Shown: piece by piece, positions 6,476 through 54,971 of the stretch | Numbering within the stretch: position 1 is the stretch's first letter | Layout: every line of letters starts with the position of its first letter | DNA from: Narcine bancroftii | Taxonomy: Eukaryota | Assembly (NCBI RefSeq): GCF_036971445.1 | Contig: NC_091476.1 | Span: 7,812,001 to 7,876,000, forward strand | Length of the DNA stretch: 64,000 bases | Direction of reading: 5' to 3' | Made by a program: the position numbers and the translations under genes | The notes under the pieces: model-generated | The model's database searches: none | Told to the model about the DNA's origin: nothing | The model's input: the letters and a program-made list of their open reading frames with translations, nothing else

Positions 6476-6572
6476 TTCATTGCAGAGTACCTTCAGAAAA
6501 AGTTGGCACAACATACTGGCTGAAGGCCCTATATCCTGTGCTGTTGTGTTTTATGCTCTATGTTATTTGCAA

Positions 6573-6705
6573 TTTTCCCCTGCAGCCGCTGCAACCGTGT
6601 CTGCCTGTCCCACATCGGACTTGTCAGCCACAAACGAGCCTGCAGCTGACGTGGACTTTTACCCCCTCCATAAATCTTCGTCCGCGAAGCCAAGCCAAAG
6701 AAAAG
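6573..6705 (+). mobile_element. RTE-clade LINE (AviRTE-like), 5'-truncated 3' end, 8-bp TSD
   Basis: Near-identical to the 3' end of the copy at 32788-33480. TSD ATTTGCAA at 6565-6572 and 6706-6713. Confidence 0.9.
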
Positions 6706-8129
6706 ATTTGCAACATGGAGGTATGCAAGCTGGGTATTGCAGTGGTAATTTTGTCTTATATTGCCCAATCATTATCATACATTTTTTTCAATTTTCCTTT
6801 TGCTATCAAATGGAATGCAAGGTTTCAAATTAAAATATAATAATAGTTTATTTTAATTTGAAGTTGAATTTTAATTTTCAAAGAGGAAGCTCAATTTAAG
6901 TGAACAAGTTATTAGTTCAATTCAACGAGCCTTCATTAACTAATCTTTACTCATATGTGTACAAAAGACCAATTCAAGCTGAGAGGTTGAGATTAATGTT
7001 ATCAATTGTATTGGAAACAAGCAATGGACTCGGCAGCACATTTTGGAATGGATGTTGGAAACTGAAGCGAATGAATCCACACTATTGTCATTCAAGCATA
7101 AGTTAATAATTTCTCTGAATTTGTTGTGACCTTGTGAGTTGTGTGAGAAGCAAAGTAATAATTTTGAAATTTAATTTTTGGGGAAAAATTCCTCAAGGGA
7201 TAGATCAAAAGTGTGAAAAGCAAAAAAAAAAGGAGTAAATTCTTTTTGAATTAAATATAGCTGTTACCAGAGGACAAAGGGCTAAATTAAAATTAGAACT
7301 TAAATTTCTCCTAAGAAATAAAACAAAGGGGTATGCTCTCGGCCCAGCATCAAGTAACATTCAGATTATTTCTGGCACCAAATAGCACTGGAATAATAAA
7401 CTGCATTCATAGTGTTGTGCAACATGACCTCCTCAGCTGAGAAAAAGGGAAACTGAAACCTACCAAATACATCAATTAACACCTGTTTAACAGCAAATCA
7501 CACAAAAATCAATTTAACCCAGAGTAGGCTGGACGATTGATGATTTCCAAGTTGACCATGGCTATCACAAAATTGTACCCATTGCAAAATTAGACTGGGC
7601 ATTTCCACTTGCTATTTATATGAGTGAGTTTGATATTTTTCCAACCTGATTCACATAGTAAATTACATTTCTCTTTCAAAACCATTGATTTCCATCCTTA
7701 CTGACATTCAAACTCAAGGTGTAACCTGTCATTGCTTGGAGTAGGTAAGTGCAACATTGGATTTTATATATTTTTTTGCTTATATCACTACTTCAAGACA
7801 TCATTATATCTTGATTGGCATTGTCTGACCTGACTTGACAGCTTTGGAATTTACTCCCTTGTTCATTTACCTCCAAAAATTGGATACCTTTCATGTGTTA
7901 ACAGTGCAGGAAAGGGGCTTTCATTTCATGATGTCTGCACCGGACATGATGCCAAATTAAACTAAATCGTTGCTGTTTGAGAGAAAGGGATGTGGAAGAG
8001 AACATGGAGCTACTGAAAGTAGTCAAGGTAAGAATTACTTTAAGAATTGGCTGATTATAATAAAAAAGAAACAGAAAATAAATTGAAACAACCTGTGTCA
8101 GGATTATATTAAAAATTATTACCTGGATT

Positions 8130-12404: not shown

Positions 12405-12899
12405 ACCTTGATGAAGGGCTCAAGCCTGAAATGTTGGTCATGTATCTTTACCTTTGCCATATAAAGTGCACCAAAGAAAAGGTACAAGGACGGCCTAAAG
12501 AAATCTCTTGGTGCCTGCCACATTGACCACCGCCAGTGGGCTGATATCGCCTCAAACCGTGCATCTTGGCGACTCACAGTTTGGCGGGCAGCAACCTCCT
12601 TTGAAGAAGACCGCAGAGCCCACCTCAATGACAAAAGGCAAAGGAGGAAAAACCCAACACCCAACCCCAACCAACCAATTTTCCCCTGCAACCGCTGCAA
12701 CCGTGTCTGCCTGTCCCGCATCGGACTTGTCAGCCACAAACGAGCCTGCAGCTGACGTGGACATTTACCCCCTCCATAAATCTTCGTCCGCGAAGCCAAG
12801 CCAAGAAGATAAAGTGCACTATTTAACCTGCTAAGTTTCCCCAGCTTTCTGTTTTTCTTTACTTCAATCGCAGTGTCTTCAGACTTTCGTGTCTTACTC
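12405..12899 (+). mobile_element. Penelope-like terminal fragment (hosts an RTE insertion), 13-bp TSD
   Basis: ccttgatgaagggctcaagcctgaaatgttgg...cctgctaagtttccccagc; flanked by ACGTTGATGTCAT (12392-12404) and ATGTTGATGTCAT (12900-12912). Confidence 0.7.
12472..12808 (+). mobile_element. RTE-clade LINE (AviRTE-like) 3' fragment, 11-bp TSD
   Basis: Encodes PKKRYKDGLKKSLGACHIDHRQW...FPCNRCNRVCLSRIGLVSHKRACS*. TSD ATAAAGTGCAC at 12461-12471 and 12809-12819. Confidence 0.92.
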
Positions 12900-15599: not shown

Positions 15600-17835
15600 T
15601 TATTAAGATGGGCAACAGGGATAAGCCAGGGAACTGGATTCCAGTCAGCCTGACACGGTATGTGGACCCGTCGACTAAAGGAGATGCCGCACTTGATCTA
15701 GTACTGGGTAGTGAACCTGGTCAGGGGCAGATCTCTCGGTGGGGGAGCATTTTTGGTGAGAGGGACCACAACTCCCTGAGATTCAGCATCGCTATGGACA
15801 AGGATAAAAGCAGACAAAATGGGAAAATGTTTAATTGGAAAGAGCTAATTACGATGGGGTGAGGCAGGAACTAGTGATAGTAAATTGGGAACAGATGTTC
15901 ATGAGCGAAAGCACAGAAATAATGTGAAGGATGTTTAGGGACCACTTGCATGATTCAGGATAGGTTTGACCCATTGAGACAAGGAAAAGATGGTAGGAAA
16001 AGGGAACTGTGGTTAACAAAACAGAGATTTAATAAGTTCCAGGAAGGAACTTAAGCAAGGATTTAGGAGAGCTCGGAGGAGGCATGAAGAAAGCCTTGGC
16101 ATGTAGGATTAAGGAGAAAGCTGTGCATATGTGAAGAACAGAAGGATGATAAGAATGAAGATGGGCCTTTTAAGGGTAAAGGAGTCACCATATGTCTGGA
16201 GGTGGAAGAGGTTGGGAAGGTCTAAATGAATACTTTGCTTTAGTATTCACCGGAGAAAAGGACCTTGATCAGGGTGAGGTCGGAATAGAACAGATTTGTG
16301 CTGGACGGTGTTGAGATTAGGGAAGAGGAAGTGTTGGATCTTCTTGAAAACATCAAGATTTATAAGTCCCTGGGACTGGACGCAAAATACCGCATGTTGC
16401 TGTGGGAAGGGAGGAAGTGATAGCTGAGGCTTTGATTATGATCTTTAAGTCCTCCTTGGACACCGGGGAGGTGCTGAAGGATTGGAGAATGGCAAATGTG
16501 GTCCCCCTGTTTAAAAAAGGTAATAGGGAGAATCCTGGGAATTACAGAGCAGTGCACCTTAAGTTAATGGTGTGCAAAATATTGAAGAGGATTCTTAAGG
16601 ATAAGATTTATTAGCATTTGGAGAAGTAAAGTCTACTCAGAGATAGTCAGCATGGCTTTGTGAGGGGAAGGTCATGTCTCATGAGCCTAATTAAGTTTTT
16701 TGAGGAGGTAATTAAAGAAATTGATGAAGGTAGGGCAGTAGATGTGGTCTATATGGCATTTGACAAGGACCCCAATGGGAGACACATTCAGAAAGTCAGG
16801 AAGCATGGATGCATGGAACCTTGGTTATGTAAATTAGTAGTATTGGACAGAAAGTATTCTGCCTGGAGGTCAGTGACTAGTGGAATTCCACAGGGATCTG
16901 TTCTGGGACCCCTGCACTTCGTGATTTTTATAAATGACCTAAATGAAGAAGTGAAAGGATGAGTCAGTAAGTTTGTGGATGATACAAAGGATGGAGGAGT
17001 TGTGGATGGTGCTGAAGGTTGTCAAAGTTTATAAAAGGATATGGACAGGATGCAGAGTTGGGTGGAAAAGTGGCAGATGGAGTTCAATCCAGATAAGTGA
17101 GAAGTGATCCATTTTGGTAGATAAGGGTTAATGGTCAGTTACTTAACAGTGTGGAGGAACAGAGGGACCTTGAGGTTCAAATCCATGCATCTCTCAAAGT
17201 CACTGCATAGGTTGATAGGATAGTTAAGAAGGCCTATGGGATGCTGGGCTTCATTAGTCAGAGGATTGAGTTCAAGAGTCAAGAGATCATGTTGCAACTC
17301 TACAAATTTCTGGTGAGCCCACATTTAGAGTATTGTGTTCAGTTCTGGTCACCTCATTATAGGAAGGATATGGAAGCTATGGAGAGGGTGCAGAGGAGAT
17401 TTACCAGGATGTTGCTTGTATTTGAAAATAAGTCTTATGAGGCAAGATTAGCAGAGCTGGGACTTTTCTCTTTGGAGTGAAGAAGCATGAGAGGAGACTT
17501 AATGGAGGTCTATAAGATTCTGAAAGGCATAGATAAGGTGGACAGCCAACACCTTTTTTCCCAGGGTAGGAATAGCAAACATCAGAGGGCACCTGTACAA
17601 AGAGAAGGGAGATATCAGGGGGTAAATATTTTACAGAGAGAGTTGTAGGTGCCTGGAATACTTTGCCAGGGATGCTGGTGGAGGCTGAAACATGAGGGGC
17701 ATTTAAGAGTCTCTGACACAGGCACATAGAGGAAAGAAAATAAGAGGTAGGGAAGGGATTAATAATTTTTGTGGAAATGTATGGGTCAGCACAACATTGA
17801 GGGCTGAAGGGCCTGTACTGTGTTGTAATGTTCTA
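15600..17835 (+). mobile_element. CR1 LINE, about 2.2 kb, degenerate ORF2 (end of EN, RT) and 3' tail
   Basis: AALDLVLGSEPG, WRMANVVPLFKKGNRENPGNYR, SGIPQGSVLGPL, LEYCVQFWSPHYRKD. Confidence 0.93.
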
Positions 17836-18177
17836 CTTTTGAAAGCAGATTATATTACATTTCCCTCAATTGAAGGTAAGAGGGGAAAGATTTAAAAATG
17901 GTGTGACAGCATCATTTTCACACAGTTTGGTGCATATCTGGAACAACCTACCATAGGAAATGGTGGGGATGGGTATAATGACAACATTTAAAAGACATTT
18001 ATGCAGGTATATGGACAAGAAATGTTGAGGGATGTGGGCAAAATCAAGGCAAATGGGATTAACTCAGGTAGGTAATTTGGCCAGCATGCACAAGTTGTGC
18101 CGAAAGTCTCCCCTCATGCTTCTTCACTCCAAAGAGAAAAGTCACTCAGTGACTTGACGTTAATGGGAGAATGGGAC

Positions 18178-18422
18178 TGAGGAGCTCGTCGAAAGAATCA
18201 AAGACTTGTTGATCCAAACCAAGGCTTTTATTAGCAAAAGGCAGGAGCTCTTCACAGGTGGCCGACCAGTCCGGAATGATCCGACCTGGCTAGGGACACA
18301 ACCCTTTAAGGCCCAGACAGTAGGCGTGGCTAAGCTCTCAGCCAATCGCTGTAAGCACAGTCTAGATACTGTAACTATATACACTATATACATTGGGTTA
18401 GGGTTAGGGTTGTACTATTACA
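18178..18422 (-). mobile_element. Solo LTR (about 245 bp), 5-bp TSD GGGAC, containing a telomeric-repeat replacement
   Basis: TG...CA ends; GGGAC at 18173-18177 and 18423-18427; AATAAA on the minus strand; near-identical to 50198-50437. Confidence 0.88.
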
Positions 18423-18799
18423 GGGACATTAGTGGGAATGTTCAAATTCATTGAATTCTGTGGAGTGAATTATAGACCTGAAATTTTAGTTTCACCACCT
18501 TCCTCAGAAAGACTCTTTCTCTATTGATACTGTCCAACCTTCAGTAGTCTCACCAATTTCTGCTTTTATTTTGAATCTCGACATCAGCATTATTTCACTT
18601 TCGCATTATTGCTCAAATCAGTTTAAATTATTTGATTTTCCAAATCCAAAAACAACCTTTTGATTTACTTGAACAAGAAATTGTCCAACAGATCATTTAA
18701 ACTTTTACTAATTGGATGGCACTTTCTCAGAGACTGATGTCTCTCTCTTAACCATTCTTAATAATTTATTGATTTGAGTTAACTGAGCCTGTATTGAAT

Positions 18800-21313: not shown

Positions 21314-23225
21314 CTATAGGTACATTAAACGTAAAAAATTAGTGAGGGATAGAATTGGACCCCTTGTAGATAGGGAGGGTAGGCTATGTGAAAAGTCAGA
21401 GGAGATGGGGGAAATTTGAAATGATTTATTTTCCTCAGTATTCACTAGGGAAAAAAATATTGTACCAGTTGAAGTAAATAAAAATAGTGGGGAGATCATG
21501 AATCATATAAGGATAACCGAGGAGGTAGTGATGGCAGTGTTAAAAAAGATAAAGGTGGACAAATCTCCGGGTCCAGACAATGTATTCCCAAGGACACTCA
21601 GGGAGACTAGTGTACAGATAGTGGGGCCATTAACAGAGATATTTAGGATGTCACTGGTCACGGGGGTAGTGCCAGAGGATTGGAGGGTGGCTCATGTTGT
21701 TCCACTGTTTAAGAAAGGGACCAAATGTAAGTCTGGAAATTATAGACCTGTGAGTCTGACGTCTGTGGTGGGTAAGTTGATGGAAAGTGTTCTGAGGGAT
21801 GGCATTTACAAATATTTGGAAGAAAAGGGATTGATAGGTAGTAGTCAGCATGGCTTTGTCAGGGGTAGATCATGCTTACAGATTGATGAAGGGAAGGCTG
21901 TGCATGTTGTCTATTTAGACTTTAGTAAAGCTTTTGACAAATTTCCCCATAGGAGGTTAGGAAAAAATGGCATTAGGTATAAATAAGGAGGTAGTGAAAT
22001 GGATTCAGCAATGGTTGGATGGGAGGTGTCAGAGAGTAGTGGCAGAAAATTGTTTGTCAAATTGGAGGCCGGTGACTAGTGGAGTTCCTCAGGAATCGGT
22101 CCTGGGTCCACTATTGTCTGTTATATATATATATATATATATTAACGATCTGGAAGAAGGGGTGATGAATTGGATAAATTTGCAGATGATACAAAGATTG
22201 GTGGTATTGTGGACAGTGAGGAAGATTACCGTAGCTTAAAAAGAGATATAGGAAAGTGAGAGGAGTGGGCTGAGAAATGGCTGATGGAATTTAAATACGG
22301 ATAAGTGTGAAGTGTTGCATTTTGGAAAGGCAAATCTAAATAGGTCATATACATTAAATGGTAGACAATTGAGGAGTGCAGAGCAACAAAGGGATTTCTT
22401 CTTTGGCTTGGCTTCGTGGACAAAGATTTATGGAGGGGTAAATGTCCTCGTCAGCTGCAGGCTCGTTTGTGGCTGACAAGTCTGATGCGGGACAGGCAGA
22501 CACGGTTGCAGCAGTTGCAGGGGAAAATTGGTTGGTATGGTAAATAGTACCCTCAAAGTTGATATTCAGGTAGATAGAGTGGTGAAGAAGGCATTTGGAA
22601 TGTTGGCCTTCATATATCGGAGTATTGAATTCAAGAGTTGGGATGTTATGATGAAATTGTACAAAGCATTGGTGAGGCCAAATTTGGAATACTGTGTACA
22701 GTTTTGGTCACCAAATTATAGGAAGGATATAAACAAAATAGAGAGAGTGCAGAGAAGGTTCACGAGAATGTTGACAGGATGTCAGGGTTTGAGTTACAGA
22801 GAAAGGTTGAGCAGCCTGGGGCTTTTTTTCTCTGGAGCGTAGAAGATTGAGGGGGGATTTGATGGAGGTGTTCAAGATTTTAAAAGGGACAGAGAGAGTC
22901 AACGTGGATAGGCTTTTTCAATTAAGAGTGGGGGATATTCAAACCAGAGGCCATGGTTTGAGATTGATGGGGGAAAATTATAAGAGGAACATGAGGGGAA
23001 ATTTCTTCACGCAAAGGGTGGTTGGGATGTGGAATAAGCTTCCGGCGGAGGTGGTTGAAGCAGGGATGTTATTTACATTTAAGGAAAGACTGGATAATTA
23101 CATGGAGGGGAGAGGATTGGTGGGGTATGGACCAGGTGCTGGTCAGTGGGACTAGGAGGGTGGGGATTTGTTCTGGCATGGACTAGTAGGGCCAAATTGG
23201 CCTGTTCTGTGCTGTATATGGTTAT
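21314..23225 (+). mobile_element. CR1 LINE (second subfamily), 5'-truncated, with nested RTE
   Basis: KVDKSPGPD, WRVAHVVPLFKKG..GNYRPVSLTSVVGKLME, VYLDFSKAFDK, LEYCVQFWSPNYRKD, FFTQRVVGMWN. Confidence 0.93.
22396..22535 (-). mobile_element. RTE-clade LINE (AviRTE-like) short 3' end inserted in CR1
   Basis: tcttctttggcttggcttcgtggacaaagatttatggaggggg...gggaaaattggttgg, the same 3' end as the other copies; no clear TSD. Confidence 0.88.
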
Positions 23226-30533: not shown

Positions 30534-30779
30534 GTCTTGACCATGCCTGGTTATGACTTGGTCATTGTGTTTCAAGGGAAAGGAATGATTTCTGTTTACC
30601 CTTTCTAAGCATCTTATAATTTTAATCACCTTGAGAGATGGACAGGGATTGAGGGAAACAGATTGAGGAGACTGAAAGGGGGGGGTCTGAATGAGGGAGG
30701 GGATCAGAATGTAGGGGTGACTGAAGAAAACAATGGGGGCAGAATGTTGAGTTTATCCATGAATGTAGAGTTCAAGGAG

Positions 30780-31314
30780 GTGCCACCGACTGAAGTCTTG
30801 GGCAGACTGTGGGAGTGGCTTGGAAAATTGGACCCAGTTCCCACATCAAGGCATGGAACAATCACACCCTTTATCCCAAAGGAACTCCGGGACTGTGAGT
30901 TTGGGTTTGTGCGTAGAGGTGCACGCGGGCCACCCTTACAGAGGCCATATGAGGGCCCCTTCAGAGTGCTATGAAACTTGTGTTCTGCACAAAGCCCGCT
31001 CATCTTGACCTTGATCGGCCCTTGCCACAACCCCCGATGCAAAGGCATGGACGACCATCCAAGAGTGGTGGACAGTGATGGCACCAGAAGTTTAGCCTCC
31101 TATTGCCAGTTCTGGGGGGGAGGAGCCATGTAGCAGCTCACCGGAGGCTTAATCGAACTGGCTTGGGAGGTTCTGAGTGATGTCATTTGGAATGTGCGGG
31201 GTTTTAAAAACCTGCAGGTGACTGTTTGAGTAAAACTACTTTTACTGAACTTCGACTCGACTAGGTCTAGTCATTTTCTTGTTCTTCATTTCGCACTGCA
31301 ACACAATTGCTACA
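30780..31314 (+). mobile_element. Gypsy LTR retrotransposon 3' remnant: integrase tail, polypurine tract and 3' LTR (31129-31314)
   Basis: FIPKELRDCEFGFVRRGARGPPLQRPYEGPFRVL...KPAHLD; PPT ggggggggaggag; LTR bounded by the inverted repeat TGTAGCA...TGCTACA. Confidence 0.85.
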
Positions 31315-32787: not shown

Positions 32788-33480
32788 ATTTCTTCTTTCT
32801 TCTTCTTTGGCTTGGCTTCGCGGACGAAGATTTATGGAGGGGGTAAAAAGTCCACGTCAGCTGCAGGCTCGTTTGTGGCTGACAAGTCTGATGCGGGACA
32901 GGCAGACACGATTGCAGCGGTTGCAAGGGAAAATTGGTTGGTTGGGGTTGGGTGTTGGGTTTTTCCTCCTTTGCCTTTTGTCAGTGAGGTAGGCTCTGCG
33001 GTCTTCTTCAAAGGAGGTTGCTGCCCATCAAACTGTGAGGCGCCAAGATGCACGGTTTGAGGCGTTATCAGCCCACTGGCGGTGGTCAATGTGGCAGGCA
33101 CCAAGAGATTTCTTTAGGCAGTCCTTGTACCTTTTCTTTGGTGCACCTCTGTCACGGTGGCCAGTGGAGAGCTCGCCATATAACACGATCTTGGGAAGGC
33201 GATGGTCCTCCATTCTGGAGACGTGACCCATCCAGCGCAGCTGGATCTTCAGCAGCGTGGACTCGATGCTGTCGACCTCTGCCATCTCGAGTACTTCGAC
33301 GTTAGGGATGTAAGCGCTCCAATGGATGTTGAGGATGGAGCGGAGACAACGCTGGTGGAAGCGTTCTAGGAGCCGTAGGTGGTGCCGGTAGAGGACCCAT
33401 GATTCGGAGCCGAACAGGAGTGTGGGTATGACAACGGCTCTGTATACGCTTATCTTTGTGAGGTTTTTCAGTTGGTTGTT
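32788..33480 (-). mobile_element. RTE-clade LINE (AviRTE-like), longest copy, nearly intact ORF2 C-terminus
   Basis: LKNLTKISVYRAVVIPTLLFGSESWVLYRHHLRLLERFHQRCLRSILNIHW...QLRWMGHVSRMEDHRLPKIVLYGELSTG...; one premature stop near 33030; (GAA)n-like tail. Confidence 0.95.
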
Positions 33481-49810: not shown

Positions 49811-50197
49811 AATATCCTCCATTTGCCAATAAACAGAAAATTCAAAGATTCAGTGACGCACATTGTTACTTGATAACTTGAGATCTATCACTGTAAAAGA
49901 ATCTGGCTATTAAGTAGCAATTGGTACTGGGATCCCTAAACTGATAAGGAGGTGAGGTAACTGGGTAATAGATTACACCAGGAAAATTAAAGGCTTCGAG
50001 GCAATCAGGGTTTATTTTTCAATTCAAATCTGATTGAGCTGATCTTTCCTATAAAATAAATGCAAATACAATTTTGTGTTCTTCACTGTTTCATATTTTA
50101 TTGGTGCTGACCTATTCAGAGAGAACCTCACTCCATGTAAGTGAGAAAGACATTGAAATTGAAAGGGGAATAAACAAATGTGAGTGGGCTTATATAG

Positions 50198-50437
50198 TGT
50201 AGAGCTCGTCGAAAGAACCAAAGACTTGTTGATCCAAACCAAGGCTTTTATTAGCAAAAGACAGGAGCTCTTCACAGGTGGCCGACCAGTCCGGAATGAT
50301 CCGACCTGGCTAGGGACACAACCCTTTAAGGCCCAGACAGTAGGCGTGGCTTAGCTCTCAGCCAATCGCTGTAAGCACAGTCTAGATACTGTAACTATAT
50401 ACACTATATACATTGGTGATGGATCTGTACTATCACA
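50198..50437 (-). mobile_element. Solo LTR (240 bp), 5-bp TSD TATAG
   Basis: TG...CA ends; TATAG at 50193-50197 and 50438-50442. The minus strand carries gattgg, cttaaa and AATAAA in promoter-to-polyA order. Confidence 0.9.
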
Positions 50438-53304
50438 TATAGGTAAATAAATCTTGCCAGGAATACAGCTGAAACAAAATGAATGTTACCCCTGTGCAGT
50501 AGCTTGAACTTTAGTGGCCTTGGAAAATAGATGCAGAGGGGGAAAGAGCTTCTGTCTTCGGTGCTTGTGTTAGCTTGAGTCAGGAAGTATTTTGGCTTCT
50601 GCCTGTGCTTTGTTTAAATCTGAGTGCTTAAAGTTTATAAAACAATGAAAAGTAGATGATAGTATTGTTATTTTATGTCTTAGTTTAAAAATCAAGTCAA
50701 AAGAAACCCAAGAGAACTGAATCATGAGATTAGAGAGGCATGGCAGGTGGTATGTTGTAGGTGCTTACATGTGGGTTTAATGAAGCTTAGAGAGATTCCC
50801 TTCAACTACATAGATGGACTGTCTGCTTTTTGAGGAACTTCCCTTTCAGTGCAAGTTCAGATTCAGTGAAGGGTTGAACAGTTTGATCCATGAACCACTC
50901 AAACCCATTCGATCTTTCTTGGTCAAAGCCAGAAGGATATGATGATGAATCAGGCAGGTATTTAAGTTCAACGTGCAGAAAGACTTCTTCTTTCACCTTG
51001 TCCAACTTACTGCTGGTACAGTAAATTATACAGTGCCAAATACAAAATGGCGGCCACCAAGGCCAGGTCTAGCAACACCTCCTTGACACCATTTTGATCA
51101 GCTCCGGCACCTAAAAATTTACCACTGCACCCTGGAAATCAGCAACAAATGTAGAACTAAGAAAGAGATTCTGTGCAGCAAATGAAGAGACTAGGACACA
51201 AATAAACAAACAGAACCCACAGAGGTTATCACTTCTCGATAGAGAATTGAGCTAAGCGCAAATCAGCACTGGGGGTCTAACAGGTCAGAGATATAAATGT
51301 CTGACTTAAAGACTGGCAATTAAGAAAGGAGTGTTGACACACGGAGGAACTTGAGGAGGTGGGTGGGAAGCACGGAGTCCTTCTCATTTTCAGGCTGCTT
51401 GATGTTTGGAACAGTTAGGATGATAGACACCAATAATGTCGGATGATGGTAGTCAGAAAACACATTGACTGAGAAAATTGTAGAATCCGTTTGGAGATTG
51501 ATGAGGAATAACAAGGGTGTGAGTAGTTTGTTGTATTTTCAGGATAGCTATGTAATAGGACGGACTATTAATCAAGTAATAATAAGGGATTGAAACCAAA
51601 GTAATAATGTAACATTTTCTTCTTTGCGCAGACTAGGTAAATCTAGTCAGCAAAGACAGTCCAGAGGACATATTCATGGGCAACATTTAAAACCGTTAAC
51701 TCGGACAATAAGTTCAGAACCTAAATAGACCTGGACTCGTATACCAAAACATGAATCATTTGTGAACTAATTTCAAAGCATCATCTGAAATGAGTTATCA
51801 TAATAAAAAGAATGTTATATTCAGTTGGAAAACAACAAACAAAAAAGGCTAACGCTAGAGGCCTGCACCCAAGCAAAGACGATTACAAAGATACAAGGGC
51901 AAGTTGAGTAGATGAGAACATCAGAGGTAGGACTATGGATAAGTAGTGGTTGGCATACTGTATAAATAAATATTTTGCAATTCTAAATGAACATAAAATT
52001 CCACTGAAATTATCCATTTTACCATTTTGGAAAGACAAATAAGGATGGGATAGACCTATAAATAAAAAAGAGACTAGATCTATAAAAACAGATAGTAATA
52101 TCTTGCGCAAATATGCAAGGATGAAAAGAGTATTGGGAGTAAACATTAGTCCAATAGGAGATCAGACCGAAGAATTAATAATGATAAATAGGAAATAGAG
52201 GACATTTCTATTTGTCCACACAAAAGAGTAGATAACCAAGGGGCAAGAGAAAATACAGAACTCTAATTAATTAATTCATATTAGAAAAACATATGTAGGC
52301 AAACTCTCTCTCTCCTACAAAGGTTGCATGCATTTGGCTTTTAACAACCTTTTTTAATCAGCAAACATTTCATGAGATCTTTCCTTAAATGTTGTGCATA
52401 CATTATAACTTCACAGGAAGAACAAGATTTGCAATAGAAGTTCCCATTGCCACTTTCCCATTATGGTCTGCTGCTCATTCACAGTTACGCTGAACACAAA
52501 GAGGAAGGCATGGCTCATGGATTTTAAAAACTATGCCTCAGGGAAGGACAATTGAACCTAATGCCTATATCACTTCCAACATGTTTTTATTATCCATTTT
52601 CCCACTGCCAGGGGCCAAACAGGTGCAACGATTCCTTAGCAGATATAAGATTATTAAGAATGCTTTTCAACTATATTAGCACATGTTCAAGGACAACTGA
52701 ATGACACTTTGCTGCTGTAGAAACTTATTAAAGGATGGGTGAAACAAAATTGTTTTGAAGCCCACAAATTATAGTTATTATCACTGTTTTCTACAAACTG
52801 CTGCTTTGGCCCAATGCACAGTAATTTTCAGAAAACTACATCAAAGAAAGGGCCCTAGCTATTTTATATAACAGACAGAAATAATTATTTCCTGGCCTGT
52901 AGCCCCTCAGGGACAAACTGAGGGCTTGGTCTTATTGTTCAGTGTGTGATATGGACCAAAGGACGTGTTTCAAATGTCAGTGCGACTGATACGGATGACG
53001 GAGTGACAGGTCGGTTGCAAGAAGAGTTTGAGTGGACGGACACAGTGGCAAGACATTGAATCTCACTTTACTGTGGGGTGTTTAGACATTGCTGCAATTT
53101 GTGCTCATGTCGGGAAAGGTCCCACTTGAAACAAAAGTATAATTAGCCAAAAGGACATTTAAAGCAAGTATTCATTAGATCCAGGAAGATTCGCCAGAAG
53201 AGAACTTGGTTAATTCCCAACGGGACCACAATTTGCTGCATAACTATAGAAAACTAATCAACTCGCAGCAGGTACAAATACTGCCAAAGAATTTTAAATG
53301 TTTA

Positions 53305-53734: not shown

Positions 53735-54971
53735 TGTTAAGAGCCCAAAGTCCCCAAAACCCAGCAGCAATAGACAGTCACCAAGACTAGTAGTTACTTA
53801 AACAAAAGCTGTTTTTAATCATCTTTAAACATGAAAACAGAATCAAACTTTAACTTATCTCTATTAACTTAACTCGTGTATGTAATGTGTGTGTAAATTT
53901 AAGAAAAGTTCTTTGGTTCACAGTTCCATCTCACTTTTCATTCTTCCAAGTTCTCTGGTTGCAGGCAATTCTTATCTCTTCCTTGGCTTGGCTTCACGGA
54001 CAAAGATTTATGGAGGGGTAATGTCCACGTCAGCTGCAGGCTCGTTGGTGGCTGACAAATCCGATGCGGGACAGGCAGACACGGTTGCAGGGGAAAATTG
54101 GTGGGTTGGGGTTGGGTGTTGGGTTTTTCCTCCTTTGTCTTTTGTCAGTGAGGTGGGCTCTGCGGTCTTCTTCAAAGGAGGTTGCTGCCTGCCGAACTGT
54201 GAGGCGCCAAGATGCATGGTTTGAGGCGATATCAGCCCACTGGCGGTGGTCAATGTGGCAGGCACCAAGAGATTTCTTTAGGCAGTCCTTGTACCTCTTC
54301 TTTGGTGCACCTCTGTCTCGGTGACCAGTTTCTTATACTGTGCACGGAATTTAACATATATAAAGTTCACCAGGCTTTGGTGCTCAAGAGGTAAATGTTT
54401 ACCACTCAGGAAGGTCCTCATAGGGTTTGCAGAGAGTGATTTGTTCCGGGATTTCCAAAACTGAGGTACCACCATTAGTCGCCTCAATTCCAAGAGAAAC
54501 ATCAGACAGATAGCACTTCCAGCCATCTGCCACTCTGGAGTTTTCTGTTTCAGTTCCAACCAGCTTCTTGGCTTGCACTGTTCATCTTTCCCTCTCATAT
54601 CAACTGTCAGAAAGCCCATGTGACTCTCTCACTTGCAAAACCCCTGACCTTCTCCAGCAAACAATAGGAGTTGGTCTTCTTGGTCAAGCTGTTTTCTTCA
54701 GGTAAACAAAAACCCAGGAATGACCTTTCTATGCACTCTGTCTACCCCCTTGCAAAGAACTCTTAACAGCCAGAGTGTTTCCTGCTTGTTGCTTAAATGA
54801 CATCATTTCAATTAGCACCTACTTGTGAAATGTGCACAGCATTCTCCATAGTTTCTGTAAAGTTACTGAATATAAATTCTTCAATATTTCAAATATGATC
54901 TGTTTTAAAATGTGTGTATGTATGTCACCTACTCTAATTTTACCAATGTATCTCCCAAATATTCCATTACA
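53735..54971 (-). mobile_element. Long solo LTR (about 880 bp net) with nested RTE
   Basis: TGTTAA...TTACA termini; ATTAAA on the minus strand near 53815; no coding capacity; TSD not clear. Confidence 0.6.
53976..54329 (-). mobile_element. RTE-clade LINE (AviRTE-like) 3' fragment, 7-bp TSD
   Basis: Matches 32805-33165; TSD TTCTTAT at 53969-53975 and 54330-54336. Confidence 0.92.

Follow-up and report, generated by a model that had tools for sequence, protein, structure and literature searches.

The window analysed here is a stretch of 64,000 nucleotides of DNA that carries two copies of the same LTR element spaced 32 kb apart. The first, copy A, occupies positions 18178–18422 (245 bp) and is flanked by 5-bp target-site duplications at 18173–18177 and 18423–18427 that match each other exactly; the second, copy B, occupies 50198–50437 (240 bp) between identical 5-bp duplications at 50193–50197 and 50438–50442. 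The TG...CA ends, the target-site duplications, membership of a dispersed high-copy family and the absence of an internal region mark these copies as solo LTRs. No full-length element was recovered by exact LTR patterns in metagenome contigs, viral contigs or prokaryote genomes. The sense strand of both copies is probably the minus strand, to judge from an AATAAA motif that lies on it at LTR position 191. The bodies of the two LTRs are 98.6% identical across 215 nt (3 substitutions), which bears out the first-pass annotation in its description of a near-identical pair with separate target-site duplications. Besides the tract described below, terminal differences between A and B are found at 18180 and 18181 (adjacent, just inside the left TG) and at 18419 (near the right end). 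With the tract included, the changes between the copies cluster at both LTR termini, against only three in the 215-nt body. A 40-nt piece of a different high-copy repeat lies at 18104–18143, 35 bp to the left of copy A.

Comparison of 22 of the 24 long open reading frames of the window with Pfam gave one match, a LINE-type reverse transcriptase at 21420–21983. Proteins of stingray, catshark and electric ray are among its best named relatives, the top matches standing at about 55–78% (60%, 55%, 78%), and by E-value these fish proteins outrank those of birds and turtles in most of the matches listed, with one bird protein in 12th place. The top match comes from a 1760-nt contig filed under the bacterium Aeromonas cavernicola and likely represents vertebrate contamination of that record. 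On this basis the host is likely a cartilaginous fish. At 30609–30974 (+), a frame without a Pfam match has an end that we take to resemble a Ty3/gypsy integrase tail. Rfam returned zero matches in the window, and no host gene was identified in its long frames, a search that short exons would escape.

Close to the right end of copy A, 14 new bases at positions 18397–18410 form perfect vertebrate telomere repeat, with the G-rich strand on the plus strand; given the minus-strand sense of the LTR, they would fall at LTR positions 13–26. Alignment of the two copies confirmed the reported replacement, with 14 nt in A standing against 9 nt in B (50417–50425). The repeat phase reaches beyond the new bases on both sides, since two G common to copy B (18395–18396, plus strand) precede them in register, at what would be the priming end of a break, and one T common to copy B (18411, plus strand) continues the phase at the rejoining side. 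A perfect telomere-phase run of 17 nt (18395–18411; 2.8 units) is thus formed between non-telomeric flanks, in agreement with the earlier claim of perfect vertebrate repeat in register with the preceding GG. All 14 of the new bases are repeat, with no variant unit, and LTR sequence resumes directly on either side.

This run is the only telomere-phase run of at least 10 nt on either strand of the 64-kb window, and also the only match within three mismatches. Markov models of the window predict between 5e-6 and 3e-5 chance occurrences of a 17-nt telomere run per window; under a fairer null, in which a short unit is repeated by slippage, a random hexamer is a rotation of the telomere unit with a probability of ∼0.003. 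At the tract site, copy B is without any telomere unit that could expand. The 2-nt register on the left side (18395–18396) has a chance probability of 6.25% (1 in 16), and the loss of 9 bp relative to B is an alteration of the break site typical of end joining. Six of these nine bases make up most of the left arm of a 7-bp hairpin at the end of copy B (50416–50436; −2.7 kcal/mol), which ranks 35 of 217 LTR windows and is not significant. As the stem is weak and unremarkable within the LTR, the hairpin is unsupported as a cause of breakage.

The stretch is contained in five public runs, four from one sample and one (X5) from another organism, and contigs from four of the five (X1, X3, X4 and X5) were aligned to positions 18080–18529. 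Runs X1, X3 and X4 derive from a single sample, perhaps the one that was assembled. Each contig represents a path without branches through a simplified graph (k = 31), and its 31-mers are all distinct (PMC12424806). In each of the three runs of the sample, one contig of 485–486 nt covers every position from 18368 or 18369 up to the last of the aligned stretch with no mismatch and no gap, at a depth of 10 (X1), 6.51 (X3) or 7.5 (X4); its opening 31-mer takes in two to three bases of the tract, reaching 18398 or 18399. In every bin beyond 18410, the depth exactly equals that of this lone spanning contig. In the LTR body (bins 18185–18379), the summed contig depth, which is not a copy number, amounts to 3.7e5–1.6e6 in the same three runs. 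Among the loose ends listed, 188–213 contigs per run depart before 18182, and the LTR family therefore occupies many insertion sites. Family contigs also leave the alignment at 18396 (29, 24 and 33 in the runs of the sample and 12 in X5, among the loose ends listed), and their loose letters past that position continue like copy B, with one difference within the 9 nt.

A tract common to many copies would branch at the LTR end and show the depth of the family; since neither was seen, the tract is private. It is present letter for letter in contigs from all three runs of one sample, running into unique flank, and it is a real feature of this locus, neither an artefact of assembly nor a trait of an LTR subfamily, both of which the first-pass annotation had raised. 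One or two further copies of the tract, or a second allele, are unlikely, and graph simplification can drop rare paths. The same annotation had taken the sister copy as the probable ancestral state, and this stands in part: copy B closely resembles what preceded the tract, but the family contigs differ from it at one position in the nine. No joint skipping the whole LTR was present among the joints listed, each of which is supported by a single contig per run, has short sides and was assigned to another locus. In X5, the LTR family is present (746 contigs aligned, 162 of them at at least 99% identity) and the flanks of copy A have zero cover, an absence that proves nothing and gives no date.

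No second allele joins the spanning contig in the right flank in X1, X3 or X4, which suggests that the tract is homozygous in this individual or that the site is hemizygous. Among the three body substitutions, the letter of copy A at 18241 stands alone, with 99.97% of the depth differing (X1), that at 18332 is common to about 20–36% of the family depth, and 18198 has no row in the contig variant table. At the mutation rate of 7e-10 per base per generation given for the epaulette shark (PMC10587355), a single private change among the 215 nt corresponds to an age of the copy A LTR of 6.6 million generations (95% range 0.17–37 million), and of 7–63 million generations if the three terminal changes are counted too, estimates that would be moved by reverse-transcription errors or by a different rate in the host. 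The tract postdates the insertion of the LTR. The event had been described as recent, a claim that is not sustained here, given that a second allele was not seen and that the bound set by the LTR age is wide (0.17–37 million generations).

Short interstitial telomeric sequences (s-ITS) have been described in primates, rodents and horses as insertions into double-strand breaks (PMC2246262; PMC7215372), and the tract behaves as a member of this class in all features tested but the four-repeat search cut-off. Exact or near-exact TTAGGG repeat lies at an internal site, and it was gained in one step from an empty state without it, as represented by copy B and by 24–33 family contigs per run, among the loose ends listed, that have no tract; this empty state is given by paralogous copies, no orthologous empty locus having been seen. 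The run is shorter (2.8 units) than the four units demanded in those studies (PMC2246262; PMC7215372), a threshold that is a search cut-off and that was relaxed to one hexamer in PMC8537989. The same method was used in 2007 on 16 primate loci within repeats, with the empty state taken from other copies (PMC2246262), and our case differs in its 17 nt total length (14 new), in its paralogous empty state and in its likely cartilaginous-fish host.

Two TERC-ITS loci reported from the catshark Scyliorhinus torazame (PMC8537989) likewise consist of telomere repeat at a repaired break. Those loci have a flank derived from telomerase RNA, whereas here all 14 bases are repeat and no telomerase-RNA flank was found beside the tract; the shark rows of that report give ND where others name a species, which we read as no empty locus, whereas here the earlier state is legible. 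Membership of TERC-ITS was rejected, as a flank from telomerase RNA outside the template is absent. Human telomere insertions and neotelomeres also join repeat to a non-telomeric break with short microhomology (10.1101/157560; 10.1101/2022.10.31.514589); as described in those texts they are somatic or experimental, often one-sided and accompanied by loss of the adjacent segment, whereas the tract is very small, closed at either end and, it appears, inherited. Origin as a fusion or subtelomeric ITS was also rejected, given the single orientation and the absence of a degenerate array from the window. A literature search, which missed most subscription papers, produced no like case in a shark or ray LTR, and the available part of PMC8078821 held nothing bearing on the tract.

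We consider it likely, with a probability of roughly 0.65, that the 14-base tract arose from a germline double-strand break in the LTR that was extended by telomerase and then rejoined. Under this scenario, the LTR would have inserted and produced its 5-bp duplication, and a double-strand break close to the LTR end would later have cost it 9 bp. The left end (GG-3') would then have primed telomerase to add 14 nt, roughly two rounds and a portion of another, and the resulting repeat, too short to cap the end, would have been joined to the right fragment by end joining with one T in common, the repaired allele being passed on by inheritance. The tract itself is likely a neutral scar, for which no function is proposed.

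The polarity fits telomerase, in that the in-register bases sit where the G-rich strand would be primed. Among s-ITS insertions, 65 of 130 in rodents and 13 of 25 in primates come with a deletion; a register of at least 2 nt, expected at 6.25% of loci, is seen in mouse at 26 of 47 and in rat at 31 of 63, and young loci carry few mismatches (PMC2246262); a register match was reported for 24 of 40 loci in a human and horse study (PMC7215372). Interstitial insertion is the expected outcome where the repeat is too short to load shelterin, according to a neotelomere study (10.1101/2022.10.31.514589). The anatomy of the tract (9-bp deletion, 2-nt register, exact hexamers) thus fits the earlier proposal of telomerase acting at a double-strand break; the part of that proposal which is not settled by it is whether the enzyme or a captured fragment supplied the bases. 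Other observations count against telomerase. The 2-nt register would occur by chance at one locus in 16, which is weak alone and comes from a single locus, and just three of the last five bases fit the repeat. The tract also lacks a flank derived from telomerase RNA. When read against the 11-nt template of the human type, which may not be that of the host and whose phase we presume, the filler comprises two complete rounds plus three bases of the next, so that the insert ends mid-round and not at the end of the template. A literature search for a shark or ray telomerase template found nothing. In cultured cells, zero such insertions were reported among more than 35,000 repaired I-SceI junctions (PMC8537989).

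The same break could have been filled without telomerase acting there: a piece of telomeric DNA may have been captured, or a different polymerase may have used a telomere or telomeric RNA as its template. In the mammalian studies, capture of a fragment is the established competing explanation (PMC2246262), and in tumours 79% of telomere insertions had microhomology and were read as end joining or capture (10.1101/157560), a figure that counts against telomerase; each junction of the tract has one to two shared bases. Such an origin is nevertheless unlikely in our view, because the register is longer on the priming side (2 vs 1) and the filler, just 14 nt long, is exact repeat throughout and lacks any variant unit, although both points are weak at n = 1. 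The filler could also have come from error-prone end joining, either copied inside the LTR or untemplated and then subject to slippage, with its telomere likeness due to chance. The right junction (five new and three flank bases) has an inverted 8-nt match ∼100 bp away at 18298–18305 on the minus strand, a possible, marginal local template; further, copy A has three other terminal differences, and the case was selected by eye among a very large number of windows, a procedure biased towards motifs that are easily recognised. This match accounts for at most 5–6 of the 14 bases in one step and is expected by chance in 3% of random contexts of ±100 bp and 11% of those of ±300 bp. Given also that a hexamer is a telomere rotation only about three times in 1000 and that B has no unit to expand, we regard local synthesis as improbable.

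Lower still in our estimation, to the point of being barely tenable, is the suggestion that the tract belongs to an LTR subfamily or was created during assembly. Sub-lineages do exist, as the partial sharing of the 18332 letter indicates, and simplified contigs can hide rare paths (PMC12424806). Against this stand the single-copy contig past 18410, unbroken into unique flank with zero mismatches in three of three runs, and the X5 data, which include the LTR family yet have nothing aligned from 18410 onward.

Taken alone, the locus is one likely neutral 14-base scar. The insertion class, the inference of empty sites from repeats (2007) and the telomerase-linked insertions of the catshark are already known; what remains is a clean example under the usual four-repeat search threshold. 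It contributes a cartilaginous-fish case whose pre-insertion state is legible, and indicates that such insertions can fall below the four repeats demanded by most searches. By extension, telomerase patches of one to three repeats, lying under the published cut-offs, might form a frequent type of germline mutation that has gone uncounted, an idea we put forward tentatively and hold to be doubtful as a general statement. If it is true, the young high-copy LTR families of slowly mutating cartilaginous fish would offer thousands of matched empty sites, and with them a direct measure of how often telomerase acts at germline breaks, how long its products are and at which phase it stops, enough to tell telomerase from capture. 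Comparison of young repeat copies could be used to count short patches and to test telomerase against fragment capture.

Within the window, the other young repeats comprise 11 overlapping pairs of at least 90% identity (2149 aligned columns). A scan of these for a second telomere replacement found none, in a number of columns far too small to judge by; only two gaps there reach 3 nt, one measuring 3 nt and the other, which appears in two of the pairs, 9 nt, and neither is telomeric. Single telomere hexamers are found at 14 other places in the window, three of them in aligned repeats that are all old (71–76%). One, at 16317, adjoins a 3-nt gap in an old repeat and is uninformative. A second young repeat family, presumably an RTE-like LINE, is represented by copies 90–98% alike at 6570–6706, 12466–12809, 22396–22536, 32793–33165 and 53969–54329, the last of which has 9 nt missing with no filler. 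This family holds a short repeat of the GGGTTG type (at 12652, 32940 and 54103).
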